A stretch of DNA of 46,318 nt from Catajapyx aquilonaris (taxonomy: Eukaryota): contig JYFJ02003112.1 in the NCBI GenBank assembly GCA_000934665.2, forward strand, positions 1-46,318, in the 5' to 3' direction. Positions 22,841-46,318 of this stretch are shown here, piece by piece. The number at the start of each line of letters is the position of its first letter. Position 1 is the stretch's first letter. Both the position numbers and the translations under genes were made by a program. Below the pieces are notes generated by a model. It was not told where the DNA came from, ran no database searches, and saw only the letters and a program-made list of their open reading frames with translations.

Positions 22841-25261
22841 TTAGAGCTCAGTGTATCTACGAAGTACTCGATTCGTTTTGTCACTCAAAAGGTCTGCATT
22901 TCTTAGAACTCTATAATAAAAATGTATTATCTTCATGTAGTTTTCTATGGAAACCCTCTCATTAAAGCCATGGTACCGCCCAAGATCCACAGGTTTCGTC
23001 ACAAGTGCACAAGAACGGTACACATCATGGGTGAGATTCAGGTACCACTTTGTATCTGTGTTCCCAACAAGAATTCCTGAAAAGAAAAAACATAAATGAC
23101 ATTGTACTGTACAATGTTTCTACTGGTACCAGTATAACACTTTGTATACCTGGTGCAACCACAGCCTCTGGAAACACCTGATTGAAGCTGGACGCAACAA
23201 CTTTATAGCCAGAGGAATCCATCCTTGCAACTGGACTGGGTGGTATGTAACTCTTGACCTCCATCTGTACTCTTGGGTCGCCTATTACCCATCTGTTATG
23301 TTGCAGCACCTCCTCTAGTGACTGGGCAGGATGGACTCTGTGGTTCACAGTCGCAGTGGCCAATGATGGTACCACATTAACTTTTGTACCAGAATTGAAA
23401 ATAGTCACAGCTGTGGTGGTTCTGATAAAAACTGCACTGAGGGGATTACGACCCATAACGAATCCCACAAGGGGACGGAAGAGCCACATGTTGGCTAGGA
23501 CAAGTCGATATAGGAAGGGAGAATGTGGGGCTAGGTGATCCAACATGGCCTCAGAATCTCCAGCTTGTAGCATCGGTGGCTGAGGATTTGATTCCAAGCG
23601 TCCCACTGCAGTGGCTAATATTCCTAGAGCAGATTCCTTTTGGGGTATACTGGAATGACCTGGATTCAGCTCCACTTTGAGCTCCAATTCCACCCAACCT
23701 TTTTCACTTGTTCCAATCCTGTTCACATAAAGATAATGAAAAATGTAGCAAATGCGGCAAAACAGATTACCTGACTCGTCGAGATACTCTCCTATCAAAG
23801 AGACAATTGTTGAATAGTATTAACGGCAGGAATGGTAGTCAATGAATGGAAATGATTGACAAACAGAGAAAAGGCATTGATAAAGTCAGACATGAGAGTG
23901 TCAATAATTCTTACAGTGCCACAGGTTTATCCACCAGCTTAATGATACCATCAGTAACAGTAAATCCTTCATCCAAAATAAATTCCAGCTTGACTCCTCT
24001 CTCTTCTAGCAGATTCGCAATATGCCATGCTCCATCCATTCCTTTTACCTCCTCGTCATGGCCAAAAGCAACATACAAGGTGCGCCTGGGTTGCATCCCA
24101 GACTTCAGGTAATATTCTAGTGCCTCCATGATGCCCTTGGAGAATGACCTCAAATAGCATCAGTGCTTCAAGTGAGACTCTCAAAATCAGTTACCAAGAC
24201 AGCCTGTTTGTCATCCATGGAGCCCCGTCCATAGATGAACTTCCCATCAACGACTTCCCCACTAAAGGGAGGATGTTCCCACTTCTCAGGCTCTTCTGCA
24301 GGAACTACATCCAAGTGAGCCATCAACAAGTATGGCTTCATGGACAGATCACTGCCTTTGACTGTGTAAAGAAGGCTGTACTTGTTGACCACTTCTTGAG
24401 TTACAAAGGGGGAGCTAGCTATTATTGGAAAACCTGAAAATAATCCAGGGTTGTTACAAAATACATAGTTGCAGCATTTTAATTGTAGCCTCCACCTCAG
24501 ATTTGTCCTCGTTATTGCTTGGTACAGCCTGCGGTTCCCACAACAAATAACAATAAAAAATCCAGGCTTAAGGCTGCAACTGGCCTTATTAGTCTAAGGG
24601 CCTTAGTCCAGGCATCAGAGATTAATTATTAATCCTTGGGATAATTGGTTGTATACTTCTCACATGTTAGATACCGTATGTTACCGTGACAGTTTCCCAA
24701 TAGGCAAGTAAGCTCCACTACCCAAACTACATCCTTAGGGCCGGTTTCACCGAGCTCAGTATATGATAAAACCAGGGTATTTCTCAAAATCCCTATCTAT
24801 TTGTATGGATTTTCCTAAAGAAACCTGGTTTTATCATATACCAAGCTCGGTGAAACCGGCCCTTAATCCTGCTACATGCAGGCTAAGATTTTCATACAAC
24901 TCACTGTCCTCTAACAGGGTGTGCATCCTCAGTAAAGCATCGGTGTTAAATACTCCTGGTGCTGAGGACACTGTGGGGATGCGCACAGCTCTGACAAGCT
25001 TCTCAATCATTCTTTTCCGATCATCAGGTGAAGACAAATCTATTGTATCCGTCTCTTCTGAGGCAAAAGCAGGAAAAATCAGAGCTTCCTCCAAACTCAG
25101 TGCCTGCATCACAGTAATTACGGCCAACACAGCCACCAGGATGCCTGCAAGACTGCATGCTATCCTTGCACCTTGGGTGAAATATAAGGAGATTAGCATT
25201 CTCTCCATTAAAAATCGCAGTTTAACTCACCTTTCATAACGGGTACTGCCACTGCCTTCAT
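22841..25261 (-). CDS. PM20D1: PM20D1-like M20 metallopeptidase / N-fatty-acyl-amino acid synthase-hydrolase, copy B (520 aa)
   Basis: Exons 25261-25231, 25171-24905, 24433-24195, 24135-23915, 23718-23150, 23076-22841; all GT-AG and phase-compatible, 1563 nt. Motifs [40 protein letters not shown]; hydrophobic N-terminus. Confidence 0.93.
24738..24862. mobile_element. PIF/Harbinger-type MITE in intron 2 of PM20D1 copy B
   Basis: Almost fully palindromic (GGGCCGGTTTCACCGAGCT...AGCTCGGTGAAACCGGCCC) with 3-bp TTA TSD. Confidence 0.85.
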
Positions 25262-27272: not shown

Positions 27273-29551
27273 CTAGAGTTCAGTATACCTGCGGAGCATC
27301 CTGTCCCTCCCATCTGACAGAAGGTCTGCGTTTCTAAGGACTCTGTAGTAGAAGTTTATGATTTGCATGTAATTGTCCACTGAGATTCTCTCATTAAAGC
27401 CATGGTATCTCCCAACATCTTCTTCTTTTGATACCAATCCACAGAAACGGTACACGTTGTGAGTGAGATTGAGGTACCACTTGGAGTCGGTGTTAGCAAA
27501 GAGTATTCCTGGTGAAAAAATGTAAATGCCTCCCATATTACGCCTGTTTATGGATATCCTACTATATTCCCCTATGTGTAAACATTAATACTTGTGCAAT
27601 TCATATGAAGTAATCAAACACCACCCCACAATACAGGGGGAAGTTCAAACATAAGTACTCACATCCATATTTTCGAATCTATGGATGTGAAAATGTGGAC
27701 ATGCAAAGCTCATTTCTAGACTTCACGTCAGAATGCAATCAGTTATAAAGGAAATTTGACAGAAGTTATTTTAGATGATACTGCACCTGGTACAACTATT
27801 GCCTCTGGATACACATGGTTGATACTGGATGCAACCACCCTGTAGCCAATGGAATCAATCTTTGCAACAGGACTGGGAGGCATGTAACTCTTGACTTGCA
27901 TCTGGACCCTTGGATCAGCTATCACCTTCCTATCATGCTCCAACACTTCAGCTAATGGCTGTGCAGGGTGTATTCTATGGTTCAGGGATGCCGTAGCCAC
28001 TGATGGCACCACGTTAATCTTTGATCCGGAGTTGAAAATCGTCACTGCTGTGCTGGTTCGTATAAAGGTGGAGGAGCGTGGTTCTGCTGCCATTGCTAAG
28101 GACACTAGTGGACGAAACAGCCACATGTTGCTTAAGGCTAGCCGAAAGTGAAAAGGGACATGAGGTGCTAGATGGTCCAGCATGGCCTCATATTCTCCAG
28201 CTTGCAACATGGAGGGCTGTGGATGTAATTCCAGGCGGCCTACTGCTCGAGCAAGGATCCCCAAAGCAGATTCCTTCTTAGGCATGCTGGAGTGACCTGG
28301 ATCAGTCTCAACTTTAAGCTGCACTTCCAACCAGCCCTTCTCACTTGTACAAATCCTGGAAAGCAACAAAGTTTCTTCCATACCACACATAACTTTTACA
28401 ACTAAGAGTTGTAAGAGAAACCATGAAATAGACATTTCAGTGAGTAATGAGCAAGACTTACACAGCAACAGGCTTATCAACAACCTTGACAATCCCTTTG
28501 GTGACAGTTGTCCCTTCGTCCAGGAGGAATTCAAGTTTAACTCCTCTGTCTTCCAACAGCTTTGCAATATGCCATGCTCCATCCTTTCCCAGAACTTCTT
28601 CATCATGACCAAAAGCAATGTACAAGGTACGCTTGGGCTGCATCCCAGACTTGAGGTAATATGTCAATGCCTCCATTATGCCCTAAGGGAGAAATTCCAA
28701 AGTGAGACCTGTCTGTAGCAAACCCTGAGTACTGTGGGAACGAACAACATTTTTCTGTCACAAACAACTTTCACGGAGCAGAGCAATTCCATTACATGCA
28801 TGTTTCACTGTATCATCAATATGATTCAATTCACACTCTCCAAATGACTTACCATAACAGCCTGCTTGTCATCCATTGAGCCCCGTCCATAAATAAACTT
28901 GCCTTCAACCACTTCCCCACTAAAAGGGGGATATTCCCACTTCTCAGGCTCTTCAGCAGGAACCACATCCAAGTGAGCAGTCAACAAGTATGGCTTCAAT
29001 GTGAGGTCACTGCCATTGACTGTGTAAAGCAGGCTATAATTGTTCACCACTTCTCGAGTCACTAAGGATGAACTGGCCACCACTGGGAAGCCTAAAAAAA
29101 CATCCAAAGTATATTTATGAAGAAACAACAACTTAACAGGTTGAAAGAGGCAACTGTGGAATGGCATACGAGCAAACTCGAACCATACTTACTCTCCTGC
29201 AAAAATGAGTGCATCTGCAGCAGCGCATCATTCTCATAAACATGGGGTGTGTACGACACGGTGGGAATGCGCACGGCTCTGACAAACTTATCCACAAGAC
29301 TCTGTCGAAGTTCAGGCGAGGTCAGATTCATCTGGTCCATCTCCTCCGGTGAAAAAGTAGGGTAAATAAGTGCTTCCTCCACTCCCAACGCCCGTACCAG
29401 AATCACAGTTCCAAACACCAGTAAGGTCACTCCAAGGAGTCCACATACTATCTGTGCACCTGTAAATGATCTCATTAATCAACAACATCTTGAGCATTGC
29501 GTACACTACCGGCATCGGCATACCTCTCAGGTACTTTCCAACCATGGCCAT
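27273..29551 (-). CDS. PM20D1: PM20D1-like M20 metallopeptidase / N-fatty-acyl-amino acid synthase-hydrolase, copy A (519 aa)
   Basis: Exons 29551-29524, 29459-29193, 29091-28853, 28682-28462, 28355-27787, 27508-27273; exons 2-6 have the same lengths as copy B (267/239/221/569/236); all metal-binding motifs intact. Confidence 0.93.
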
Positions 29552-30040
29552 ATCTGCTCTCACACAGGTCAGGATATATCCTGCACTTAATTACGGCCAA
29601 TCAGGCAGTTGGCCGTACCCGGTGGGGCCCTCGGAGGTCATCCCAGAATCAGGCAAGGTCACAGCTCATCCAGTGCATGTGCTCTCTACATTGAATGAAA
29701 AGTGACCCATTCATTGCTGTTGGCAACACTGGCATGTTGGCTCCCATGAATAGTCACTGTTTCGATACTTGTACCTGATGATTGTGGTAGTATCAGTAAT
29801 CAGTGTGCGATGGTATCGTCTTAGTGCCGTCTTGCAGGAGACGACGACGTGACACTCCCTGATCGACGAAGGTGACCTGGTTTCCTCAGTGTAGATTAGA
29901 GATATTGTGATGCTTGTTCAGACACGGTAAAAAGTGCATTGCACTTCCAGTTGTAACTGTGGTGTTGTAACCAGATGTAACATAAGCATGTATACATATG
30001 TGAAGTAACTGCTGACTTGTCCCAACAGACTGGCTGTACG
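29552..30040. promoter_or_regulatory. Probable compact bidirectional promoter / 5' UTR region (PM20D1-A and eIF2D)
   Basis: Divergent start codons 490 bp apart; DRE-like TTTCGATA at 29760-29767; acceptor-like CCCAACAG ending at 30028, just before the eIF2D ATG. Confidence 0.55.
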
Positions 30041-31964
30041 ATGTTTGTGAAGCCATTCCGTGTGAAGAGCAACAGCCAGGTGAAGGGGTCTGAAAAGAAG
30101 AAGTTCCGTGCCGAGATCCGGAAGGCCTTTCCGCATCTCACGGAGGAGGACTGTCTGGTGCTGGTCCCAAACAAGGAGGAGTTGTCTATTGCCAAGGTTC
30201 TCACCCACTCGGAGGAGTCCACCATGGTGTACAGCGTTAACAAAACTCCTGTCATATTTGAACATGATCGCTCGCTCTATCCAACGGTGCATGCCCTTTG
30301 GCAAGTACCACACATCCTTCCGGTTACTTTTGTCACGATGGCCAACGTGATCGAAAAGCTGCAGAATGGGGCTGACCTTATGATACCTGGGATTGTACTT
30401 TCTGATGGGGATAACTTGGGCCCGAGATCTTATGGGAAGTTCGAACGAGGCGAGAAGATTACTATTTGTATTGAGGAGAATTCGGCAGCTATTGCAGTGG
30501 GAAAGGCAGCGCTCAGTTCGTTTGACATGTACATGGCAGCCCGGAGAGGGAAGGGTGTGCAGGTTCTCCATGTGTATGGGGATTTGCTCTGGGCATTTGG
30601 AGGGGGGAAGGCAAAAGTGCCCAACTTTGGACCACCTGGACAGAAAGTAGAGGAGGTAACTAAGAGTACACCTAAGTCAGAACAAACTCCAGTTGAAGTG
30701 TCTGAAAATTCACCTGAAACAGCAAGTCCACTTGAACAAGCCAATGGAATGACTCAAGTTGTATCCAACGTGCAAGAAGATACTACTACAACTTCCGAGT
30801 CAGAATCAGAAGACGAAAGCCCATCGGACATCTTGAACAATGCTCTTGCCTCCCTCAATGCTCCAGAACCCATGCCTGATCCAGGGGAGTCTACATCAAG
30901 TGGACCTCCTCCGGAAGACCACACTGAAATGGATGCCCTCATCCTCTATTGTTTCATCAAGTCTTGGAAAACTACAGCCAAAAAGGCAACGTTGCCTATT
31001 CTCAATAGCCAGTTTTACGCATTACATATGCTACCAGCAGTACCACGTGGGTACACTATAGACCTGAAAAAATCAGGGTACAAGAAATTCTCACGTTTCC
31101 TGGATGAAATGCAGGCGAGAGGTGCAATACGTGTTGAGGAATTAAGCAAAGGAGTAGCAAGCATTGTGCATGTAGATCCTGCCAATATGCTGTTTCGTCA
31201 TTTCCAAGAGGATGAATTTGTCGACACCGAACCTGCACCGACAGATACCACTGATGATGAATATCAACCTCCACAGATACAAGAGGTCCACATAGTGACA
31301 GCAAATGTCTTGCAAATATTTAAGCCTTGTGGGTATAGTAAAGGTGACGGGCTAACAATGGTAGATATACGTAAAGGCATAACAGAATATGTTAAACGTG
31401 AGGACCTGCAGTGCAAGGAGGACAAAGCCTACGTTATGATGAATCCCCTGCTGACTGACTGCTGCCTGTCAAAGGCCGAGTATCATGTCAAAACTAAGCT
31501 TAAATGGGAAGAGGTGAGCAGCCGCTGTGCATCACGGATGACCCCTGCGTTCAAGGTGAGCTTCAAGGGCAGGCCTCCTGTGATGGTGCGAGGAAAGCTG
31601 GAGCCAATTGACCTCCAGGTCATGACCCGCTCAGGCAACAAGAAGGTAACCCTAGTACACAACCTGGATGTGTACGGGATTGACCACCACGACTTCGCCC
31701 GGCGGTGCAGAGTTGGAGTGCAGGCCAGCACCACAATAGGAACAGCGCCAGACAAAAAGGGGCTTCACGTGCTAGTGCAAGGGAACCAGGTCAACTTCAT
31801 CGCCAAACTCATCACAGGTCAGGTTCATGTCATTGCATGCTCCTAATTTTGAAAGAAAATAATCCATGTCAATTAATGTGAAAATTTTTATTACAGAAGA
31901 ATATAAGCTAAACAAGAAGTATCTTAGAGGACTGGAAAATGCACCTAAGAAGAAGAAAAGATAA
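30041..31964 (+). CDS. EIF2D: Eukaryotic translation initiation factor 2D (ligatin), 614 aa
   Basis: Exons 30041-31817 and 31897-31964 (phase-1 GT-AG intron). N-terminus MFVKPFRVKSN, PUA region (YPTVHALW, GADLMIPG), DLKKSGYKK, SWIB-like region, SUI1 domain (RSGNKKVT..NLDVYGID..VQGNQ), C-terminus EEYKLNKKYLRGLENAPKKKKR. Confidence 0.95.
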
Positions 31965-33857
31965 AAATTGCTCATTTTAAATTGCAATGTAATTCAAATT
32001 TAAAAATACAGAGGAATGTCTTGTTTTTTTGGTTTTTAATATGAATCCAGTAGATTTAGGATTCCCAAACTGCACAACTACGTCCTCCATGTCCGGGTGC
32101 TGTCATCAAAGGTATCTGAGGACCTGCTGCAATGGGTTATCCTACATAAAAATATTCATGCAGAAGAAACCAAAAAAAAAAATTAACATTAGGTTGTGTT
32201 GGGGGGACAAGCCGCAGCTTTTGACGTGAATATGTCATTAAAATCGGATCAGTATTGGGGGGAGTGAATTGATTGTTTATAATCAATAATGAAGTCTGGA
32301 CACATGCATGGTGACCCTAAGCACCTTGCATGCCCCCGCTATGGGGCCCTGACTGTAACGCTTTTTCGTTACTAATATGATTTTAAAGACGTGTTCACGT
32401 CAATAGGTCAAAGAAACAGACATAATTCGACATTATGTTAACAAATTATTATTTCACATTCATCCAGAAGAAAAAATTACATTAAAATCCGAAACAAAAT
32501 AATTACTTTCACAGATTCCACGTAACACAGACTCAAAAATACCTCTTCAAGAGGCTACATAAATTCATGTGACAAAGAAACGTTTCACAGGCATTAAAAA
32601 AACAACGTGCAAAGTCCTGCTCACGATAAATGTGAGAAAGGGGGAGGGCAACTTCTCCTCGTCCTGTCAAACTACCCTCATGTCCTCGATTTGCTGCCTT
32701 GTCATCCTGTTGGCACAAGTTGACAAAGGGTCACTCACTCTGTAACTCCCCCCAAAAAATACTAAAACCACAGTAATGCGAGGTGGGGAATAACCAAAAT
32801 AATGGGAGAAAAAAACAGGTGATCACAACTCAAAAGCTATCCACAATCCAGGACATGGTGGTACTTTTTGGGTTTGTTTTCTGTATCTTGCATGCAGGTT
32901 AGTAATCGTAGAATTCACTGAAAGGAATGAAACGGGATGAATGAGGGAAAGTATAAAAACTGCATCCAGAAAAATGAAGCAATTGGTCATAATAGGTACT
33001 ACTGCAAATAATGATAAAACACAACAATGCTGTTCTAGTTTGGAAGGGGACAAACGTAATGTTTACCACCGTGCAAAAATAAGGGGCCTAATGGCCTATT
33101 CTTATGTCGGCAGGAACCAACCTGCTATGCTGCCAGTGAGCTTATTTGCAACAGGAAGCCATTGTTGGACTCGGATTTTTGACAACAATGGATCCCGGTC
33201 ACAAGTAAGCTGGCCCTGAGCGCACAGGTCACAACCCACAGACATACCAGTAGGCCATCACACTGCAAAAATTGAGCATGCATGAAATAAGTCATTTCAA
33301 GTAGGCCTACAACTGTAATCTCATGCATAAATAACAGCAAAGGTAAGTGGTCAAAATATACAAAACTTATGTAGGTCAGTGTGTAATCCCATAGCCCACA
33401 GAAAATCAAGGTTTTGTTAGCATTACTAGAATAAATTACAACTTGTCAATATTTTTTATGCACTAATCATTGCAATTTTGCATAATGTGGGTTATGGTTA
33501 TTGCACAGAGGGCTACTGAATGTTGCCTTAACACTAATATTTTGTGCAGTGGTGATCGTGAAGTTAAAGCTTAATTGCGTTTCAAATTTGTTCGAATGTG
33601 CTCTTCGCAATATTTTGCAAAATGTAGTCATACAATACCTTACTTCAATTCCAATTGATAATGGATCTAGTGGAGAAAAAACTTCCTCGTTACCATTTAT
33701 CATATATCACCACACTAAAATCAGCAGCTTGCATCCAATAGCATCGTATTCCTTGAGTGGTTTCCTTCTCACTTATTGCTTATTTTACCAATGTGTTTCA
33801 CAAAACCCCTCTAGAAGCATGTGATCAACATTATGATTTTATTATCATCCCTCTAAC

Positions 33858-36800
33858 TCACCTAGTTCCGGGATTCATTCCTACTCTTCGGGCGGTTGCA
33901 AGCCTTTGTCTGGAGAGGAAGGACTGTGCAGATGGGTTGCTACTCATTAGCCGCTGCTCCGCTGCCTGGCGGTTCATCTGGTAGGTCTGCACAATACATC
34001 ATTGACACGTTAAGTCAGTAAAAGCTGTAAAATTTGGAACACTGTCTTACATAGTTGTAAAATGCAGTGGTAATGAGCTGCTCTTCTGTCTCTTTGATCC
34101 GCCTGCTCTTCTCCGTCTCCCTCTCCAGGTGGTCAATGCGCCGGTCTTTGTCTGCTAGCTGGGCCTTCAGAACTGCCACATCTGCTGCTGCTCCACCCCC
34201 CGCACCCTGCTGGAGGTCAAAGCTTGCATTGATGCTCTTCAGTTTCTCCATGTATTTCTTGTAACGCTCATCAACTTCTTTCATCTCTCCATCCTTGTGT
34301 GAAACCACATCCTCTAAAGAGCTCACCCGACTCCCTGGAAAATAAAGCCACCATTCAAGTTACTAGATGACCTAAAAATCCCTTTTACTGTTGAAAGTTC
34401 AACATTAAAGCAGTTCAGCATTAGGCCATGAAATTGTTCATGACAAACACTGCCTTTTTACATAACATAGTATAAACATGCAGTAAAGCAGATGATTGGT
34501 AGACTCAACAGATGTAAGGCAGTATTTTCCACTAGTGTACTCACGGCTGTCCTGCAGCTTCGCCTCAAGCTCCTCGATATACGCCCTCTGTGTATCCTTG
34601 TCCTTCTCCAGATCCTTCACCTTCCCAGACAGATGGCTCAGCTTCTGCCTCACCTCGCTGCTCTGCTGACCTGTAGTTGCTTGCGTACCTAGCTTTTCCT
34701 GCAGCTCCTCCACTTGGTTCTCCAGCTCCAAGACACGTTGGTTGGCCAACCTAGAAGATTGTCCATAAGGTCGTTGCATCCTTTCAATCTCAGTCGGGCA
34801 GCAAACACTTTCATGCAGGAAATAGAAACATATTTAAGCAGGGGGTCCAAGATTGAATTCAAAACATTTTGAAAAACATTATGAAAACAATAACCCTAAC
34901 CCTGATGATTAAATGACACTGCTGGCTTGATGGGTAATTTTCGGATGCGCAAGAGCACAAGTCAAAAAGAAAAAATTTCCGCATATGCGCTTTTTCCCCG
35001 GAATCCGAGCGTTGACCTTGATTAATCCACCTCCTTCCTCGGATTTGCGGGAAAAAGCGCATTAATCAAACAAATTTTCTTTTACCCACGCATCCGAGAA
35101 TTAATGAGTCCTCTGACCTGTTCTGACTCCTTCTGGCCAGTAATGAGTCTCTGAGATTGATTTAAATACTAGCTCCAGATGGCAAACCTGGGGTGGCATC
35201 CAGACACTGACAGCAGTAATTTTTGTGACGTGAACAAGGTCAATGATTTTGCATAACCATCTCTGAAGGCCCATCCCACTGAGAGCACCAAAGAGATAGT
35301 CGAATTGGAATGGTGGTGTGTCAGCCCACTTCTGCTGGAGGGATCAGAGACAATCCATAGAATTTGCTATCCATGCAAATTCTGATTGAGGTCATTAAAA
35401 TAATGACCTCAATCAGAATTTGCGATTTGAGTGGTCAGCTGAGTTGTTGTTGTTATTGTAACATTTACTGAACTTTTCAGACACACCACCTATATCTTGA
35501 AGTTCTCCATATCTCAAACTGTTGACTATAGTCTATTCTGGTTTACTATACGGATTTATAATTTTTTTTTCCATAAGCCATAAGTCGTAGTTTGTGCCAG
35601 ATTCAGGCAGATATTCCCATCACACTGCCTAAGAGCTAAGGCAAACAAAACCTTGTGAATTGAATCATCTATGGGAGAACAAAGTACTACTTTTGCGTTG
35701 CTTGTGACAATTAAAATCACATACTCACGAGCCAGTGTGAAAATCATTGTGTATGTGTCACCAGAGTTCTATTTCTATCACAATCTTTGTTCTCCAAAAA
35801 TGATGTGATAAGGTTGGGAATCCTTCATCCAATAATCCAACAACCTAAAACCTCCAAAATCTGTATGTTGACATGACGCGCCCCAAATGAAAAATTCCAT
35901 GCGAGTGTAGCAAGACAAGCATCATTACCTGTATGGCTATCTATACTCATACAGAATTACTAAAAATTTACGTAAAACTACTTCCAGGGTTAATGCAGAA
36001 ATCACTGTTTACATGTGAGCGATTTGACAAGTGAAGCGGAGCGAAGCCATCGCCGAGTGATGTATCCAATATTGTTTGAGTCGAAAGTAACAATCAATTT
36101 TCGCCTCAAACAATACTGGTTACACAGGTTACTCAGCATTGTTATCGGCGGCAATGACATCGCTCACATGTAAACGCACCTGACCTTCTATTAAGAAATG
36201 TATATGGATATCGCTGTTAAGGTTTTTATCCCATCCCGAAAAGTCCCATTTTATCAATGCAAATCTTCCGAAATCCTAAATACTTCCCGTCCCAAGCTTT
36301 ACGAATAAAGGATTCTCAACCTGTAATACTTGATGACCTAATGAATGACCTCAACGCACTGATGTTTAAGGACACGAATTCCTGTTGTGCAACAGTAAAT
36401 AATGCAGATCCAGTGTATCCTTCTGCACCGATAATGTTTGCTGATTGAGTTTGAGCAATTCATGAGTTTCCTCCTTTTTTCACACAGGAGCACACCACCT
36501 CCACTTGCTCTCCATCTGCCAGTGTAATCCATACTGATACCTACCACTATACCACGGTGTATACCATGAGAAGTTTGTACTCTGCCGTGTAGTCGTCAGT
36601 GCTGTAAAAATTGTACACCCTAATCCCAATTACACTCACACCACTGTTTCAAACCTGTGATGGAGCATTATATACAAACACAGTACCAAGCATATAACCA
36701 AACACTAACTCCTGCCAGCCTTTTGCTTGCCAACAATCCACAAGGACTTAATTCTACGATAACATCACAAGAAAATCCCCAAGAACCGAAGGGATAGAAA

Positions 36801-39800
36801 ACTACATCCGGAGGAAATAACTAAGTGCACTCTTGCGTAGTGCACACCTACAACTGACAAACCTGCCATGACCTGAGTGCTGTGGCATAGGCCCTACCTC
36901 CTGGAACAAGATACTTGTCCACCTGCAGCATGAGTGCACAAACATGCCCCATTCCGCATGCATTTTGGATTAGTAAGCAAAACGTAACATGCAAAAGTGC
37001 ATACCAAAACACTGCAAGATTAGTTTCGCATCAAGCCCAAGCAAGAGGGGAGGGTGAATAATACAAAATCATCACACCAGCCAAGTAAAATAAAATACAA
37101 CAATGCAAAATAAAAAAGACAGCAATATTTCTTACAAATATATTTGTATATTTCCACTCTTTTGACAAATACAAAAAAAAAATTATATTTTATTGTATAC
37201 CAGATGAATGGGCATTGACACATCTGAATAATCTCACACACGACACATGGCCTCGAGTATTTAATACTGCTGAACTGTGTCACCGGACATGACACCTTTC
37301 GCTATTTGTCTTTATCCTCCTTGGTTGGGCTTGAATGCTACTTTACACTTGCGATGATAAAATAACAACAGCGTCAACTTGCAGAGCCACAGATATTGTG
37401 AACGGGTCATTGGCAAATAAAAACATATGGCACTGCATTTTTCCCGCCATAAATGTCTGTTTCTGACTAGATTGAAAGAGAAGGAAAAATTTTAAAACAT
37501 CACCGGTGATGACACCTCGCAAAAAGAGAGGATGAAGTAAATCACAACCACAGATCACAACAAATGGAGGTGTAAAATGTTTCAAAAACACGAAAACGTG
37601 CACAGCTGGCTCATACGTTGAGTATTTCCCTGTTTGTAATGAGAATAGAGGGAACACGCTGAGTCCAGCTGGCAGTTGAGGCCAGTGGCCAGAGAACAAT
37701 ACCCTTCTACATAAAAATTGTAACTAATATACTCATGACGATGCTCCAGTGCCTCAAGTTTTCAGATCTTCACAAATTTGTGCACTTCCATCCACACATT
37801 TTCACACTGAAATAAACTGCAGTGCAAAAATCGAACATCCTCCTAGTGCTAGTTGCAACAGTTATGTATCGAGGCATTTGAGTGAAGCCACTACCTCCAT
37901 ATGATTTAGTAAATATGGCCAATTCTAAGTCTCTGATATGTAAATATGAGTCAGATACAAAGTGCAAAACATTAAAAATACATGCCAAGTGCTGTGTTAG
38001 GGTGCACAGAATGACAATATGGCATTAACAGTGTCAGCCAAAAATACCCGCGCCTTCTTTTTGCTCTTCTTGGTCTTGACCTTAGGTAGCCTCAGCAACG
38101 GTCGCCTTTCCCTGACCTCACTATTTCCAAATGAAACTTCTCCGTTCTCATGCCCGACTTTATACATGGAGGCGTTATACCCATCCTCAAACTCTGGATC
38201 TGACTTTGATGCAAACTCAACATCCGAATCAATCCCATGTGTGGAGCCCTCAGGACTTGCTAATGCCACTTGAACCACAGGTGCAAGGTCCTTTTCCTCA
38301 ATGTCAGTGTTGCCCTCACTAGACACGCTTAACACGGCCGTAAGATCATTGTAATCACATAATAAACCACTACTTGATGATGAGGACGTCAAAGTTGATG
38401 GACTGTCAAGGACCTTAATATCAGGTTCTACATATTCGCAATGTGGTAATGAATCATCTGAGTGCTTCCTGTTATTGACATAGTCGGATCGTGGCAGTGA
38501 ATCGTCTGAGTGTTTCCCGCTACTGCCGTCAGGACTGCGACTCAGCTTGACATCACCACACCAGCATGGCAGTGGAGTTGACGTTGTGCCACCCCCCCAC
38601 CCATTTGTGACCCGATGCGTGTCAGCATGCATCGTGTCACCCATGCCATTTGGCACCCTACCACGCGCCAGTGTCGCCAGCACCTCATGCGACAACTCCC
38701 TACATGTGCAACAATTTGCGGGTGCAGAATCGACTTCCGAAGAGCACAGCTTGATCTCGTGCACGTGCTTGATTGTGGCAGAGGCAAATGGCAAGGTTGA
38801 GGCACAGTGTCGAACGCTGTTGTTGTTGTTGTTATTGTTGTGGTAGTGATAGTGATGATGGTGGCTGTTGGGAACGAGGTAAGGAGGAGAGGTGCGTTGC
38901 AGGTTGGATTCAGAAGCCCACCTGTTTTCAGTTTGCAGCTCGCTCTGTCGTTGGCGGAGATCATCAGCCACAGCTTGCAGAATAGGCACTTGGTCTTCAT
39001 CAGTTGGTGAAAGCTGGCTTAGGCGTAGCATTTTGTTCTCGTGCTGCAGCCGGAGAAGCTTCTCTCTGAGGAATAGTGGCTTGCAATGTAAATTTGAATT
39101 TAACTACAGTTGCAAAATGTGGAATATGAAGTGGAGGTAACAACTTGGGGAAAGGTATGAAACAGATTAATCAATCTCCTTTTCACTTTACACACAACAA
39201 CGAAAGCAGATTCACTGCCACGTTTAATTCCCCTCCAGAAGAGTTACTTCCAAGTCACAGGCCTTACTGCAGCAACTATGACTACATTCTCCCACCATTA
39301 GTAAAAAGAAGGCTAAAGAAACTAGGAACACAAATTAACCAAGGTCATGGTTGCCGAAGTAAAATGACTCCCCCTTCCCAGAGCAAATACTACAACTTCA
39401 TTTTCTGTGCAAATATCTTTCTGTTAGGACCCCAGTAGCTCACTTGATTTCAGGTGGAATCATCTCAAGAGTGTCAGTTTCCGAGAGGGAGCTGGCATTT
39501 CTGGTTCCTGATTCTGGGCTCATCACAGAAGACAGGTTGGACGTTCCTAGCTGTAGCTGAGTGCATTTCAACTCTTCGTTAGATTCCCTCAGAGAATCCC
39601 GCTCAGCTATTAGACGCTGAAAATAAGTTTCAATTAGTAATCATCCTCTTTTAATCTGTAATAGGGCTCCGCAAAGCTTATCAGAAAATGTAGCAATGCA
39701 CACTAGAAGCTCAATGTATTTTGTAACATCTGTGCCTTCTTTCCTATTTTTAACTATCCTTTGGCACTTCTTGAAGAGTTACAATATATGACTAGACTAT

Positions 39801-42800
39801 TGCTGTTCACAAAGGACAGATTCAGCCTTGAAATAGGAGAACAAACCTCAAGAATTAAACACAAGATACAAAGACATGACACATTTAAAAGAAAGAAAGA
39901 GAGGTACTCAAGAATGGAGACTGGCAGTCACAGTGTCCGCCACCATACCACCTGATTGGACACAAAGCCTGCTCTGGCAACAACAAAACTCGCTAAGCAG
40001 TTGGAGCCATTCATGTGCTAAAAAGCATGACTTATGTTGAACATGACTACCGCATTAACGTAATTACCATTACAAAAGGCTGATTACAGACAACAAGGGG
40101 CAATTAAAAATGCAGGCACATATTATCACGTGCTAAGAAAGACATCGGTACACTTGCCCATGTATTTTTATTACCAGTCTCTCTGGCGGTAAAGTAAGGT
40201 CTGATATGATTTCCTTCAATTTCAGCCTCCCAATTGAACAAGGTTGCAGTAATCATCTCATGAATACAGGGTGAAGGGAAACTCGCGCCCAATCGCCAGG
40301 TAGACTTACAGTACTCGTAAAACTAATATAGGAATGTGCAGTTAGTTTTGGGCACCGTTGCATAGTTAATGTGTACGGCGCCGTCAAAGTTTCGTGACGT
40401 CACATCAGTTACGCCAACTCTAAAGAAGCTCTGAACAATCCAGCCTTGGGTCCGTAACACATCGTCCACGTGCAATAGGTGATCAAATCCCGTCAAAGTA
40501 AGAATCCAGGTACGACACCTGTGCACTTGTCATTTTTAGCTAATATTTTACCATCCACGCATTAACTACGCGCAGGCGCCCAAAACTAATTTCACATCCC
40601 TATATTAGTTTTGCAAGTACTATTAGTCTACCTGTCGATTGGGCGCGATGTTTCTCTTCACCTTGTATAAATAACTTGTTGAATTTTGAGTCACCAATTA
40701 CGTTAAGTAAGACTGCTATTAAAATCACACTGCAGTGAACAGTACATAAAAAGACAGGGGCTGCGAGACCTATGCATCACAAAACGCAGCCCCTGCAAGG
40801 TTACCTGGTTGCGCGCATGTAAGGCCTGAAAGGAAGTGAGCCATCCAACATTTCTAATCATTCTGCCACATCAATTGCAAACACCTCCTATTTTATTCGC
40901 TTTATTGCAAAACAAGGAAACACTTACTTCCTTCTCCCTCTGAATAGCGAGCAGCTTTTCTTGTGTCTTCTTGTTCTCAAATTCGGCCTTGTCTGCCTTC
41001 TTGGTTTCCTCTCCAAGCTTCTTATGCAATTCAGACACCTGCTTCTTGTACATTTCGAGCTGAGGCTTCCATGTTCCACTTTTCTTGAGCTCCTGTAATG
41101 ACAAGTTGGTTCAATTTTGTTTTGGCATCATAAGGATTTTCAATTCACATTTGCTACCTACCTTTAATTGAAAAATTCATTTGTCATGCGTGAAAATTTC
41201 AGATGATCATGCAATCTAATCCAAATCACAAGAAATAGCTCCATACCTCTTCTAGCTCCATGTTTTGCTGCATGTAGTCGGTATTCTTCTCTTCAAGGAT
41301 GCGCACCTGCCTTTTCAAGTCAGCGTAATCTTCCAGCTTTTTCTTGTAGCCTTCGACAGCAAGTTCACATTTGGACAGCTGCTCCACCCTCTCCCGAAGA
41401 ACATCCACTTCATCTTTCAGAACATGTGCCTCTTCAGCAGCCTTTTGGAGCTCATCCTGCTTGCCCTGCAGTTCTAGCAGCTCCCTCTCAAGTTGCTCTA
41501 CCTTCACGCGGTAGTCATCTCGAGCTGATGCCACAAGAAAAAAAATTATCAGATCATTTACAGCACAAGCATTTGCACCAAAATTCAGAATTTACATTGT
41601 AATGGAACAGTTCAAGCTTCAGTGACTGATTTTATTTTTCTAATAAATCAACTGGTGGCATTACTGATTAATTCCATCAACTCTTGAGCTTCTAAGTGTT
41701 GGAGGTAAATAACACTTTTCTGATTTAACAAGGATGACAGTTCCAATAAGTGATATATTAATCAATAAAATCAATTACAAGTCTCATATGCCAAGTGGGT
41801 CAACAGATTTGCATTCAAGCCAATTATAACAAGTGATAAGTATTGTTTATAATAATATTTCATTCTTAGAAGCAGTCACATTAAATGTCTTCTCACAATT
41901 ATGAAAGTGTCACATTACAATCACCCAGAAGTTCTCCGGCCTTGACAAAATGTAGGCCCTACATTGCACTATAAAGATTGAAAAGGTAATCACTTCTGGA
42001 ATGACAACTCAGCTCGTAAAACCCATTAGTGTTGACTCACAGGTTTCAAGTTTGTACATCTCCTCCTGGACACTTTCCAACTGCTTCTTGACCTCCTTGT
42101 AGCGCTGCCCACTGCCACCCATGGAGGCATCCTCTACTACCTCCATCTCCCGTAGTCGCTCCTGCAAGCGCTCATTCTCACCATGTAGATTGGCCTTCTC
42201 CTCTTGGAGAAGGGCCACCTGCAACAGGGCACATTCGAGGTTATGCACTGGACAATTTCCAACCACAAAAGCCATCTTTGTTGCACAACTTTGTTTTCAT
42301 CTAAATAATATGCTGGTATCCATGACAACTTCAAGGTTGGGAATTTTAGTGACATCCCGAGCTTTTATCGGGCTCAGCTATTCCCATTAAAATTCCTGCC
42401 GATAAAGCAATGACCTGTGGTCGCTTGTTTACACTAAGCCACTTCTTTTTCCTTACTCTCCGATACCATGCAACGTGAAAATCACAGCACCTCACCTTCA
42501 TGTCTAATTCATGACACCTCTGTGCCATGTGCTCCTTGGCTACATTCGCAGCTTCCAGATCATCTAGAACCTTTTTCAAAGGTGCATCTACATCAGGTAA
42601 ACTCTCCAGTCCTCCAGTCTCCTTAGTCATAAGCTCTTGGATGGCTTTCATTATCATCTGCTGGACAGACTCCTCCATTCCCATAATAGTTTCTATGTAC
42701 TCTACAAAACAATACAGGGAGTGAAAATTCATTTGACCATGATCCGCAAGGTTGAGTTCAAGCCGGTCTCATGCAGCGGCATTTATTGTGCACATTAGGC

Positions 42801-44221
42801 ATGGTTTCGTCAATTATCTCCCAGTAAATGCATTGTCACTGAGATGTTATCTCGATGACAGTAGCTGCAATCAGGAAACGCCAGAAACTTACCTTGCTTC
42901 ATTTCACAGTTAATTGCACAGCCCAGTATCAACTGGAGCATCCGGCCCAACTCTGCAGGATTGTTGTGTTCGCCTGAAAGATACAAATTACACCACTGAA
43001 GAGTAGCAATTACAAGGATTTTTCAAAACAGTTCAGTGCCACACATTAATTAGGCTGCAATAACAAATTGGCGGAAACAGTTGTCGCCAACCCATTATTT
43101 TTGAATGCATAATTCCCAAGTACAGTAACTGCATTGTCATGAAAACAATACGCCACAAATTTGCTTTTTTTGCGTTACCGCATTTATCACGGTGTTGCAC
43201 ATTAGTCTGCATGTTCCGGGCCAGAACTTATTACAAATTGTATTTTATCTTTTCCTCTCCTGCTGGCCAGTGGTCCTTTAGCACCAAGGTCACCTTCCAG
43301 ATTTTTCTTTCTCAGCTCAAGATGTGCTCCCTTCACCTCCCATCCACCTCATCCCCCCCACCTGCATTCCTTTGGCCCCCAGAATATAAAGAGTGCTTGT
43401 GTCTAATGACCAGACACGCAACTTGCAAGCAGATTAAAGACCTCGCGAGTTTTCTCCCGGGCCATTGGACACAAAAAGGCGTGGCCAACCAAGATCTATC
43501 GCTGGAAAAAAAAACGAACACAATAAACACATCAGAAACATCGTATTTCCTCTGTCTATTTCTGTAACCCTTACTGTCCCAGAAACCCACAAACAGTTCC
43601 TGATACCGTATCGTAAAGGTCACCAAGGTCCAACCTACGAATAATAAAAAAAAGCACTCCAATTTGCTCAGGTCAACAACATCTCAACACGAACCAGTTC
43701 TCCATTCGCAGGAACAATGTGCCAAAAACCATTGACTCTTAAAGTTCCTTCAGGCAACGACATGAAGATGCTCGAAAATCCTGCCCCTTACCACGCCTTC
43801 ATAAAACATATTAAATCTGGGTCGACCTTCCTTCAAGTGTCGATCCCTATCAATCACACCCTAATTTCAATATGTCGCAACAATCTCTCCTGCCGAGTTG
43901 TTCCAAGGATGGGAAAGAGAAAGGACTACAACAAGGTGGCAGAGGGCACCTTGTAAAAAAAATATATTGGATTGAAAGGTTAGCCGAATATGTGCCACAC
44001 AATGCCATGCGTTACGTCAGCGACATACCAATTTTGTTGTCGTTGCCGTTGATGTCATGTGTGTCCCCACAAACGGGGTAATGCAAATAAAAATTAATAA
44101 TAATAAAAAAATACTTACCAATTTTGTTCACGTCCGGCATGTTGAAGTCTGTAATGTGCTGCCCCAGCATCTCCTGGTAATACTCCAAGATGCCTTTGAG
44201 TAGCTTCTTCAAGTTGCTCAC
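33858..44221 (-). CDS. HOOK: Hook microtubule-tethering / dynein adaptor protein (partial; N-terminal exons beyond the window)
   Basis: Exons 44221-44119, 42973-42893, 42701-42496, 42218-42041, 41524-41247, 41092-40928, 39616-39444, 39065-38922, 34750-34545, 34334-34051, 33986-33858; phase-compatible, 648 aa. Motifs VSNLKKLL, ELGRMLQLILGCAINC, MEESVQ, RLQHENKML, EEQLITTAFYN, QSFLSRQR. Confidence 0.93.
34936..35103. mobile_element. Imperfect fold-back MITE-like element in Hook intron
   Basis: Arms TAATTTTCGGATGCG...ATGCGCTTTTTCCC.GGAATCCGAG / CTCGGATTTGCGGGAAAAAGCGCAT...CGCATCCGAGAATTA. Confidence 0.65.
35375..35423. repeat. Perfect hairpin, 23-bp arms and 3-nt loop
   Basis: GCAAATTCTGATTGAGGTCATTA-AAA-TAATGACCTCAATCAGAATTTGC. 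Confidence 0.9.
35811..36323. mobile_element. Pogo/Tigger-like MITE (resembles Tigger4a/MER46 from memory) in Hook intron
   Basis: TA|AGGTTGGGAATCCTTCATCC ... GAATAAAGGATTCTCAACCTG|TA; internal GACATGACGC..AAATGAAAAATTCCA and CCCATCCC..ATGCAAATCTTCC blocks. Confidence 0.6.
36007..36181. mobile_element. Harbinger-like MITE nested in the Tigger-like element
   Basis: 17-bp inverted repeat GTTTACATGTGAGCGAT / ATCGCTCACATGTAAAC plus inner hairpin ATTGTTTGAG.CGAAA / TTTCG.CTCAAACAAT. Confidence 0.7.
37997..38921 (-). CDS. Putative alternative terminal coding extension of Hook (donor read-through, 307 aa)
   Basis: Frame of exon 39065-38922 stays open for 925 nt past the AG|GTGGGC donor; in-frame 48-nt duplication with mainly synonymous differences; AATAAA on the minus strand at 37194-37189. 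Confidence 0.7.
40267..40665. mobile_element. Tc1/mariner-type MITE with ~90-bp TIRs in Hook intron
   Basis: TA|CAGGGTGAAGGGAAACTCGCGCCCAATCG... and ...CGATTGGGCGCGATGTTTCTCTTCACCTTG|TA. Confidence 0.85.
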
Positions 44222-46318
44222 CTGGAAAAGATATCCATGTAATAACCCAATGAAAGTCGTGACCAGTCGCTCATAATTTTTTTTCAAAGCGGCCTTGTTG
44301 CATAATGTTCCTGACATGCTCCATTACTAACTCGGTTATTGAATTAAGTGCTGTTTCTCTTATGGGTTCGCATCCGGTACTATTTGTGCCATCTTCCTCC
44401 AACCGGCCTTGGACCAGGGTTATGCATAGTCAATTGACATTTGACGCCACTTAGACGCCACCATAAAAATCGCGACAACTTCCAAAATTCGCGCAGGAAA
44501 TCACAAGCAATTTTGACACCCTAATGCGATTTACATCGGACAAAAAATTCGCAATATTTATTACCATTTTAGGAAAATCCGCGCGTCACGCTTAATCTGG
44601 TCCCATAAACATCAGCAAAAGGCAATACCTGAACTCACACGACCCTTCAACGACCACCCAATAAAAAAACGTGACCTAGGACTAGTTTTCCGTTAATTCC
44701 CCCCCCCCCTCCCCCCAATAAAACGAGATATGCCAATTCCCCTGCCAATTTGCATGAAAATGACGAAAAACGGCTAGCCTTGTCCATATATCCGTGACCT
44801 GCCGAATCATGACCAGTGCACACATAGCGCTACCTACTGGTGGTCACCATAAGAGATTCGCCGACCGTTATGTGTTCCACATACGAGGCAAGGCTAAGTG
44901 TATATGGGTGCCAATTTATCTTGTCGCAACTGGGTAACAGGTTACAGAATAATCCTAATTTACTTCATTACACGCTCTCATTTCGCCTCATATGTTAGTC
45001 ACTTCCTGTTGAACCGTACGCAGAATTCGCACTGCAAAAAAAAACCGGTAAATGGGAAGCCGTTACACCTCAAGACACCTGGATGGACCCCTCCCTGGTT
45101 TACCGGCCAGATGTTGCAACAAAGACGAAATGAAAATGTGCAAGGTCAAACCACTTTAACCACGAAAAACTGAAAACAAAGACTGAAACAACAGGGTGTA
45201 CTGAATGCTCTTTTGATCGGGATGAGCAGCCAGCCGGTTTGGCGAAGGGCTTCTTACTTGAGCCAATTTATTGCAACCAATTGCGATGGGAGGTCACATA
45301 CATCTTCCAATGAGTAGGATGCACCAGGAAATCGCCTACACTTTTTGCTACAATCAAATTTCCGCGTTCTGATCGGCTTATCCAGCCAGGTGCAAGCAAG
45401 TTCGTATATTACAGACAGATAGCGCTCCCCGCCCATAGTGACATCTACCTCCAATTTTCCAACCAGATTGCACCTGGCTCGACTGCTCGATTGAGTTGAT
45501 CGAAAGGGCCATATTTGCACATTGCAATTTTTTTTTTAAAAGGGTATTGTTGCCTGCCATACTCCGAAACATGCATGCCCCGGGGCAAGGAGCGGAAGAA
45601 TGCCACTCCTCGATATGAGGAAGCGTGACGTCTTATACATATCAGGCCGATACAGACACCCTTGAACTTACCCAAAGCCACTGAATATTTTCTGCACTAC
45701 TCATACATATTTGTAAGCAACAATGTCATCCAGTACACAAATCTCATGACTGCCGTATTTCTAATCGCAGTTTCATGATAAATCACAGTAAATGTACCAA
45801 ACAGTTGAGATACATTTCGTCTGCTGCCGGTAGCAATTTAGCCGCAATCTTGTGGCAGGATCCATAAAATTACTCCGTTTTTTTGCCAGAAACGCCGCGA
45901 AATATTGGCGAAAGTGGACCTCTAATGACCATGCGGTCGCGATTTCAAAAATTGCGGACAGATCCAAAACGGCCGTACAAAACTTGTGAAATTCACGTCA
46001 CATTTTTGGTCCTGACCTGATGCCTCCCATAAATCTTCAGCCACAAATTGAAACAACTTAATGCTACAGGTGGGAAAAATCGCTCGATTCGTGAGACCCC
46101 CACTATAATATGCGACCTCTATAATTGATTTTATCTGCAATATCTGACACTAACGCAAGAAAATCGGTTCCCATGCCCCTTATAACAGCCCCCTAATTAT
46201 AGATCCCCATTCAACTGGTGTGTATCCCAAGATTTCGCCAGTCCAAATGGTCCTAACAAGGAGGTCATTCAGGCCAGTGACCCTCATCACTGTTGTTCCT
46301 CACTTGAGCATATGTGAC

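Follow-up and report, generated by a model that had tools for sequence, protein, structure and literature searches.

Here, we describe an alternative C-terminal end of a HOOK3-like dynein-adaptor gene on the minus strand of contig JYFJ02003112.1 of Catajapyx aquilonaris (assembly GCA_000934665.2), whose whole stretch of 46,318 nucleotides (nt), positions 1 to 46,318, is referred to below as the window. If the splice donor that closes one coiled-coil exon is left unspliced, the reading frame continues into the following intron and would replace the canonical end of the Hook protein with a tail of 307 residues. The alternative isoform very probably arises from a composite alternative last exon of this gene in a pancrustacean arthropod and, as judged from sequence comparison, the donor read-through isoform is real, old and common to Malacostraca and Branchiopoda.

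The Hook coiled-coil exon common to both isoforms (EKLLRLQHENKML...QTEN plus two bases of an Arg codon) lies at 38922..39065 on the minus strand, as do all Hook features below, and is placed by a Pfam match and by the contig joints 39065/39444 and 34748/38920 (+2). It closes at an alternatively used donor, CAG/GTGGGC (38916..38924), with the GT at 38921-38920, where read-through gives AGG (Arg) followed by TGG (Trp). The alternative coding end occupies 37997..38920 and holds 307 codons plus TAA (37999-37997). This end is housed in the 4171-nt intron of the canonical isoform (34751..38921; GT..AG, acceptor ...TCTAG/G), for which a transcript contig carries the joint 34748 to 38920. Three canonical 3' exons (34545-34750, 34051-34334 and 33858-33986, the last including the stop) encode the 205 residues that are swapped for the tail, and the upstream Hook exons used by both isoforms (39444..44239) are supported by contig joints, the gene model and tblastn.

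Conservation of the tail among crustacean Hooks

A search with the upstream Hook exon returned 86 Hook proteins, and a profile search built from five tail proteins contributed the best 120 of its 328 matches, giving 176 Hooks in all; the database Hooks compared here are cluster representatives only. Five of the 86 were exceptionally long, and all of them carry a tail after ENR: Homarus americanus 'Hook 3-like' (1276 amino acids, aa), Halocaridina rubra 'Protein Hook 3, partial' (1289 aa), a hypothetical protein of Petrolisthes cinctipes (1344 aa), Daphnia carinata 'protein Hook homolog 3-like isoform X1' (885 aa) and Daphnia magna 'putative Golgi-associated microtubule-binding protein hook3' (798 aa). 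All five part from the canonical protein immediately past ENR, where W or C comes next, and they end in ...KTKNKTAKHMVAETFSAMFTLCTP or ...KSLKKRKMFKAAANAMFSLCGP, compared with ...KVKTKKSKKKARVFLADTVNAILSFCAP in the window. The profile search added two Daphnia-like proteins with the same C-terminal end. Among the matches listed, the end motif NA[IM][LF]x[FL]CxP was found in the window and in 7 of the 176 database Hooks (three decapods, two Daphnia and two Daphnia-like). An isopod Hook, known as a partial model, ends 17 residues past ENRW. The first tail residue is thus W or C in the isopod fragment and in all seven complete database tails, because the Arg codon consists of AG plus the donor G and the next codon must read T-G-N (otherwise a stop).

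We then asked how well the window tail itself is recognized by its counterparts. A profile of the five crustacean tails, from which the window was excluded, ranked the window tail first among 1557 open frames (E = 8 × 10−4), the next frame reaching only E = 2.7. Aligned with the decapod tails by hhalign, the window tail gave three collinear matches, at the C-terminus (E = 0.001), at IKHVHEIKL (E = 0.02) and at WASESNL (E = 0.078). The first of these was the top match in all three hhalign pairings (E = 0.016 for the window against the Daphnia-like tails, and 0.0064 for decapods against the Daphnia-like tails), always reaching the final residue. WASESNL, located at 38900..38920, corresponds to WASESDL in three decapod tails, and IKHVHEIKL...CC (38705..38773) to I[HR]HIHEFK[ML]...CC in decapods, while the Daphnia tails lack the IxHxHExK block. 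The tails vary in length from 307 residues in the window to 373-917 residues in the long crustacean Hooks, and most of their sequence is unalignable.

Genomic evidence for the same arrangement came from a Daphnia-like contig of 2582 nt (L001), found via a Daphnia-like protein, on which Hook exons are separated by short introns. Its sequence (...GAGAACAG/GTGCAC...) stays open in frame for 276 codons past ENR up to the contig end and gives R-C; donor position and phase equal those of the window, and the donor is again non-consensus. The initial annotation of the window had proposed looking for the tail at the equivalent Hook position in relatives, and the same break, phase and end motif were indeed recovered in decapods, in Daphnia and on this contig. 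It had also described the isoform as hidden, which is not true of the family: annotated members, Daphnia carinata 'isoform X1' among them, existed already, and the isoform class is already present in public gene models. Literature searches, which mostly did not extend to subscription journals, returned no description of an alternative Hook tail or of a crustacean Hook isoform, and no published function for any of the long crustacean Hooks. A 287-aa database Hook ends in ...LEAENRYYVY, reading on briefly past the same ENR; its first residue there is Tyr, which a GTA donor would give. This protein is possibly a piece of unspliced sequence from a species that lacks the long tail.

Open frame and coding signal

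The tail belongs to a stop-to-stop frame of 368 codons (37997..39103), the first 61 of which include the 48-codon Hook exon. At the stop-trinucleotide frequency of this strand across the whole window (0.0497), the probability of 307 open codons is 1.6 × 10−7, and it falls to 1.0 × 10−9 when the stop frequency is taken from the two other same-strand frames of the tail. None of 3000 mononucleotide shuffles of the tail remained open, the five other frames of the stretch contain 6 to 34 stops, and only one open frame in the window is longer than 368 codons, that of a 621-aa eIF2D gene. A codon-usage log-ratio trained on the Hook gene's own exons versus its introns gave −0.139 per codon in frame, compared with −0.452 and −0.795 when read out of frame, and 45 control windows taken from introns reached −0.551 at most. 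The open frame of the tail goes far beyond chance.

The frame also contains two KHSDDSLP... copies with a 16-codon period (38429..38515), at 38515-38477 and 38467-38429. The four nucleotide differences between the KHSDDSLP copies are all synonymous; across the 13 similar codons of the duplication there are four synonymous and three non-synonymous codon changes, and base agreement over the full 48 nt is 31/48. Tandem Repeats Finder, run at a minimum score of 30, did not report the duplication, which is real but weak evidence for coding. On these points the initial annotation read the letters well: the in-frame extension past the QTENR donor at 38921 is present and open for 307 codons to the TAA, the tail C-terminus reads as quoted, and the AATAAA placed about 800 nt past the stop lies at 802 nt. 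Its account of the duplication stands for the coordinates and for the all-synonymous KHSDDSLP stretch, and is weakened by the three non-synonymous changes over the 13-codon span and by the silence of Tandem Repeats Finder.

Transcript evidence

Ribonucleic acid (RNA) evidence was taken from the contigs of one public run, whose library type is not stated, aligned to 33500-44500. These contigs carry ten joints, CT..AC on the plus strand and therefore GT..AG on the minus strand, which make up the whole Hook gene set and include the canonical joint 34748 to 38920 (cut +2). We take the contigs to be RNA-derived because all ten GT..AG splices are present. Three contigs cover the tail and the 3' untranslated region (UTR), at 38595-38949, 37918-38595 and 37174-37697, each with at most one difference. 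Within the coding tail (contigs spanning 37918-38949), the run departs from the window at a single base, where ACT becomes ACC with Thr kept, and shows no insertion or deletion. The 3'UTR of the alternative messenger RNA (mRNA) extends over 37174..37996 and is covered by contigs at 37174-37697 and, through the stop, at 37918-38595, with no listed contig over 37698-37917. The AATAAA poly(A) signal lies at 37189..37194, 802 nt after the stop, and a contig ends at 37174, 15 nt downstream of it, although contig ends cannot prove RNA ends; an additional ATTAAA is present at 37265-37260. Transcription of the donor read-through, as the initial annotation had claimed, thus agrees with the contigs of this single run, which span the tail and the 3'UTR to the AATAAA site.

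The contig that crosses the unspliced donor carries 28 exon letters and the spliced contig carries 30 letters on the exon side; we infer that both stop where an assembly graph of 31-letter words would branch between the two isoforms. Run depths were not taken to rank the isoforms, and contig-free stretches (34968-35701, 36436-37169, 37698-37917, 39739-40105, 41574-41940 and 43042-43775) were kept out of the evidence. Two Hook-intron stretches, 35702-36435 and 40106-40839, draw numerous contigs that have joints and loose ends, at a summed depth of 26-65, and the contigs aligned overall are mostly just 90-95% alike to the window. These two stretches resemble dispersed repeats or transposon fragments, with the transcripts coming from other copies.

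The Hook gene and its splice sites

The Pfam family PF05622 (HOOK) matches residues 8-65 of the 368-aa frame with 36.6 bits (cut-off 35; E = 3.1 × 10−9). Once joined, the exons yield an uninterrupted Hook protein with 682 codons readable in the window, of which the first ~30 are upstream read-in. The exons at 44114-44239 and 42939-42974 align by tblastn with residues 61-110 of three Hooks, so that the true first ~60 Hook residues lie outside the window. The Hook N-terminal domain, PF19047, is calponin-homology-like and serves to bind the dynein light intermediate chain. The spliced Hook model shows 54-55% identity to insect Hooks over ~650 residues and 49-52% identity to nemertean, horseshoe-crab, myriapod and decapod Hooks.

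A quick maximum-likelihood tree was computed on 60 rows, the window and 59 hand-picked proteins of the 176 from the database, with Shimodaira-Hasegawa-like approximate likelihood ratio test (SH-aLRT) support and midpoint drawing. It places the window Hook on the pancrustacean side of a split (100%) from myriapods, chelicerates, spiralians and deuterostomes, and outside the 15 insect rows (98%), without resolution relative to the 15 crustacean rows. Nine of the ten Hook donors start with GTAAG, GTGAG or GTATG, the exception being GTGGGC at 38921, which is also the sole donor without A or T at +4. The same donor is off the GTRAGT consensus in both species for which genomic sequence was compared (GTGGGC at 38916-38924 in the window, GTGCAC at 1740-1760 on the Daphnia-like contig). 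This off-consensus donor may be a conserved weak site that permits a choice between splicing and read-through.

Character of the tail and its C-terminal motif

The conserved C-terminal motif, KKSKKKARVFLADTVNAILSFCAP (38000..38071), consists of a basic cluster, a short hydrophobic stretch, N-A, a Cys at −3 and a Pro at −1. It occurs in all eight tails, that is, the window and the seven complete database tails (BLASTP E = 0.044 and 0.016), and the consensus of the last ~two dozen residues reads as a basic cluster followed by A-[DE/A]-[TA]-x-N-A-[IM]-[LF]-x-[FL]-C-x-P-COOH. All eight share Asn-Ala, the Cys at −3 and the Pro at −1 without exception, and the surrounding hydrophobic residues vary. 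Between −40 and −15, the count of Lys plus Arg is 12 for the window, 5 for decapods and 9 for the Daphnia-like tails. The hydrophobic stretch after the basic cluster measures at most 16 residues, contains Asp/Glu or Lys plus Asn, and has a mean Kyte-Doolittle value of 0.55-1.49; these last 16 residues are neither long nor apolar enough to span a membrane. The CaaX prenylation box requires a Cys fourth from the C-terminus, and since the Cys occupies the third position from the end in all eight tails, they contain no CaaX box.

The window tail as a whole is rich in Ser, Asp, Asn and His, has a net charge of −9 and contains 10 Cys. AlphaFold2 assigned helices at low confidence to tail residues 78-85 and 287-305 only, and the tail appears mostly unstructured with few short conserved motifs. 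The acidic dileucine signal recognized by adaptor protein (AP) complexes has the form [DE]xxxL[LI], and its sole instance in the window tail is ERRPLL at 38093-38110. About 0.3 such matches are expected per 307 residues of this composition. In the seven other tails the pattern is absent from two and stands at unrelated places in five, 203 to 845 residues from the end.

Two further features of the tail are recorded here. A His/Tyr run followed by seven Asn (HHHHYHYHNNNNNNN) at 38819-38863, partly (AAC)n-encoded, is absent from the decapod and Daphnia tails. At 38174-38194, EFEDGYN follows an acidic/Ser stretch, and the aligned region in Daphnia reads ...DVSFHDGRAS...; EFEDGYN resembles what we take to be an FFAT-like (VAP-binding) core and is a candidate only.

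What the alternative isoform loses and keeps

The canonical exon segment 34051-34332 matches positions 13-101 of the HOOK3 chain 8qat_A (E = 1.3 × 10−16). In PDB entry 8qat, which holds a HOOK3 571-718 fragment, the coiled-coil segment CC4 (653-688) binds FTS and the helix 694-702 binds FHIP1B, according to PMC11996680; the same text reports that HOOK3 CC3/CC4 cross-link to CC2 in an autoinhibited fold-back. For Hook1, PMC8730729 describes a conserved C-terminal helix in which mutations abolish FTS and FHIP binding. Because the 205 lost residues include the FTS-binding segment, we infer that the alternative isoform cannot form the complex FTS-Hook-FHIP (FHF) and lacks the CC3/CC4 fold-back. 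The FHF independence put forward in the initial annotation is consistent with this loss of the 8qat-matching FTS/FHIP-binding segment.

The break between shared and alternative sequence aligns with residue 531 of a frog HOOK3 of 701 aa and, in arthropod Hooks, with residues 502-512. In PMC4970328, Hook3 1-552 supports robust motility and the constructs 1-402 and 1-440 show few motile events. If human numbering is close to that of the frog, the break probably falls inside HOOK3 441-552, so that full dynein activation is not assured. Dynein activation by the alternative isoform is therefore plausible but not given.

Proposed mechanism and alternative explanations

In the mechanism that we propose, splicing of the weak donor at 38921 would lead to the three exons encoding the FTS/FHIP-binding end. 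If the donor stays unspliced, translation would instead continue for 307 codons to the TAA at 37999-37997, and the unspliced RNA would most likely be cleaved and polyadenylated just past the AATAAA at 37194-37189. The product would keep the Hook domain and the coiled coils to about residue 500-530 of full-length numbering, and might couple the N-terminal part of Hook to another target via its C-terminal peptide.

What this peptide would do can be only tentatively stated. Our preferred reading, held with well under even confidence, is that it attaches to membranes via the basic cluster and an acylated Cys, a pattern that fits the conserved end. Almost as likely, and equally tentative, is that it serves as a docking motif for a protein partner and not as a lipid anchor. 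The isoform could then link dynein, or the Hook N-terminus alone, to the cargo or site of that partner, a proposal we regard with the same reserve. The invariant polar Asn, the Ala, the Cys and the terminal Pro at fixed spacing in all eight tails, the low hydrophobic moment and the two further short motifs kept with decapods speak for docking, whereas the adjoining basic cluster is typical of membrane-binding ends, and the tail belongs to no Pfam family and has no known partner. The initial annotation went further than the preferred membrane attachment, proposing an FHF-independent adaptor anchored by a polybasic patch and a possibly palmitoylated Cys and sorted to endolysosomes through ERRPLL and AP adaptors. 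Part of that model finds its counterpart in the alignments, in that the basic cluster and the Cys at −3 recur in 8/8 tails, as a sequence pattern only, and the FTS-binding segment is lost. Its dileucine signal, by contrast, is not borne out, having no equivalent at the corresponding position in the seven other tails and a chance expectation of ~0.3, and the strict conservation of N-A, C and P would suit a peptide ligand equally well; we therefore consider the model in full improbable. A truncated Hook might alternatively act mainly as a regulator that dimerises with the canonical form or competes against it for the dynein light intermediate chain and dynactin, with the tail largely as a spacer. 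The probable position of the break in HOOK3 441-552, together with the poor movement of constructs ending at 440 in PMC4970328, and the largely unalignable tail of 307 to 917 residues would suit such a role, but a mere spacer would not retain an invariant C-terminal peptide across Malacostraca and Branchiopoda, and we consider it unlikely.

Several observations weigh against a conserved, functional isoform of this kind and should be set beside the evidence above. Searched with phmmer against 1.84 billion representatives, the tail found 0 matches at E ≤ 0.001; its similarity to the crustacean tails is weak outside the short motifs, with BLASTP E values of only 0.016-0.044; and among the matches listed it was not seen in insect, chelicerate, myriapod, spiralian or deuterostome Hooks. 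The tail comparison spans distant crustaceans only, and some of the long decapod models may be ab initio predictions. On the RNA side, the 28 exon letters of the donor-crossing contig fall below the 31-letter bridging minimum, and the single run, kept as contigs, may share its project of origin with the assembly. Amphipathicity of the last 16 residues is weak (hydrophobic moment 0.11-0.36), and single-sequence AlphaFold2 returned no confident fold (mean predicted local distance difference test score, pLDDT, 31.5). Other searches were likewise blank: the tail matches no Pfam family, a word-index search with the 368-aa frame for longer proteins confirmed none of 6289 candidates, a metagenome scan with the tail confirmed 0 of 582 pattern matches, and the best score in the ESM Atlas, 0.76 to a low-complexity arthropod cluster, stayed below lead level (recognition 1175). 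Against the PDB, the upstream Hook exon query found no match, and the 368-aa frame met only His-tag look-alikes of its HHHHYHYH run, spurious matches that are owed to the His/Tyr run at 38819-38863. Since true relatives surfaced via the Hook part, we attribute the blank tail searches to low sensitivity for a mostly disordered tail. The weak donor and these blanks could also reflect retention of the intron without function, together with a cryptic poly(A) site, the frame being accidental or a decaying relic. This is very improbable in our view, given the chance of 1.6 × 10−7 for such an open stretch, its frame-specific coding-like codon use, and the same architecture and end motif in distant crustaceans. 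A separate gene nested in the Hook intron and fortuitously in frame with the upstream exon, for which the mere 28 exon letters of the donor-crossing contig leave some room, is hardly credible: no stop separates exon and tail, the first tail Met comes no earlier than residue 93 of 307, seven database proteins fuse the N-terminal part of Hook to the tail, and the Daphnia-like contig is equally contiguous.

Implications and genomic context

Work on Hook adaptors treats FTS-Hook-FHIP as the cargo link of Hook, according to PMC8730729 and PMC11996680. A conserved isoform that drops the FTS-FHIP part points to FHF-independent use of the N-terminal part of Hook in a large animal group, and its C-terminal sequence of ~25 residues offers a short, testable handle. 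For annotation, the 'intronic' frame should be called a coding alternative last exon in this species, and the long models from decapods and Daphnia turn out not to be artefacts of read-through. The finding is of limited value in that the isoform class is already in public gene models and any functional role is a prediction from sequence. As a rather doubtful possibility, the ancestor of Malacostraca and Branchiopoda may already have possessed a second Hook cargo attachment bypassing FTS-FHIP-Rab, formed by a lipid-modified or docking peptide on a flexible tether. If true, a Hook without its C-terminal fold-back would sit directly on a membrane or structure, as a non-transmembrane counterpart of the KASH isoforms of the Caenorhabditis elegans protein ZYG-12, and the bypass isoform would have been lost later, or would still be unnoticed, in insects.

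Other genes are found near Hook in the window. On the plus strand, 29981-31846 forms an uninterrupted 621-aa frame with Pre-PUA, PUA, WH_eIF2D and SUI1, all over Pfam cut-offs, and looks like an intronless eIF2D/ligatin gene. It is convergent with Hook, whose 3' end is ~2 kilobases away and which has at least 10 introns. Two minus-strand frames, 27746-28663 and 23028-23819, contain an M20 peptidase dimerisation domain (E = 2.3 × 10−11 and 6.3 × 10−12, respectively), probably as large exons that belong to two M20-family peptidase genes in tandem.

Comparison with known systems

The closest counterparts of the window isoform are the long crustacean Hooks, which share the break after ENR, W or C as the first residue, and the basic cluster with the NA[MI][FL]x[LF]CxP end; those of decapods additionally share WASES[DN]L and I-x-H-[IV]-H-E-[FI]-K. 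The window alone has the His/Asn run and the 16-codon duplication. C-terminal anchors made of a basic cluster and an acylated Cys are known, e.g., from R7BP and palmitoylated small GTPases. Like these, the window tail has a Lys/Arg cluster followed by a Cys near the C-terminus, within ~20 residues, whereas it differs in having a single Cys, x-Pro-COOH after it and an invariant Asn-Ala six residues upstream. Compared with human HOOK3 as part of FHF, the canonical window isoform has both the Hook coiled coil and the 8qat-matching C-terminal exon, and the alternative isoform differs in lacking the FTS/FHIP1B-binding and fold-back part. PMC2717649 describes three isoforms of the Hook-family protein ZYG-12 of C. 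elegans, two that sit at the nuclear envelope and bear a transmembrane KASH domain, and a third, without it, that is centrosomal. Although the window tail has no transmembrane segment, and the two are likened by isoform design and not by sequence, the window gene resembles ZYG-12 in that its alternative isoforms differ at the C-terminal end, the very part that, according to that text, sets localisation in ZYG-12.

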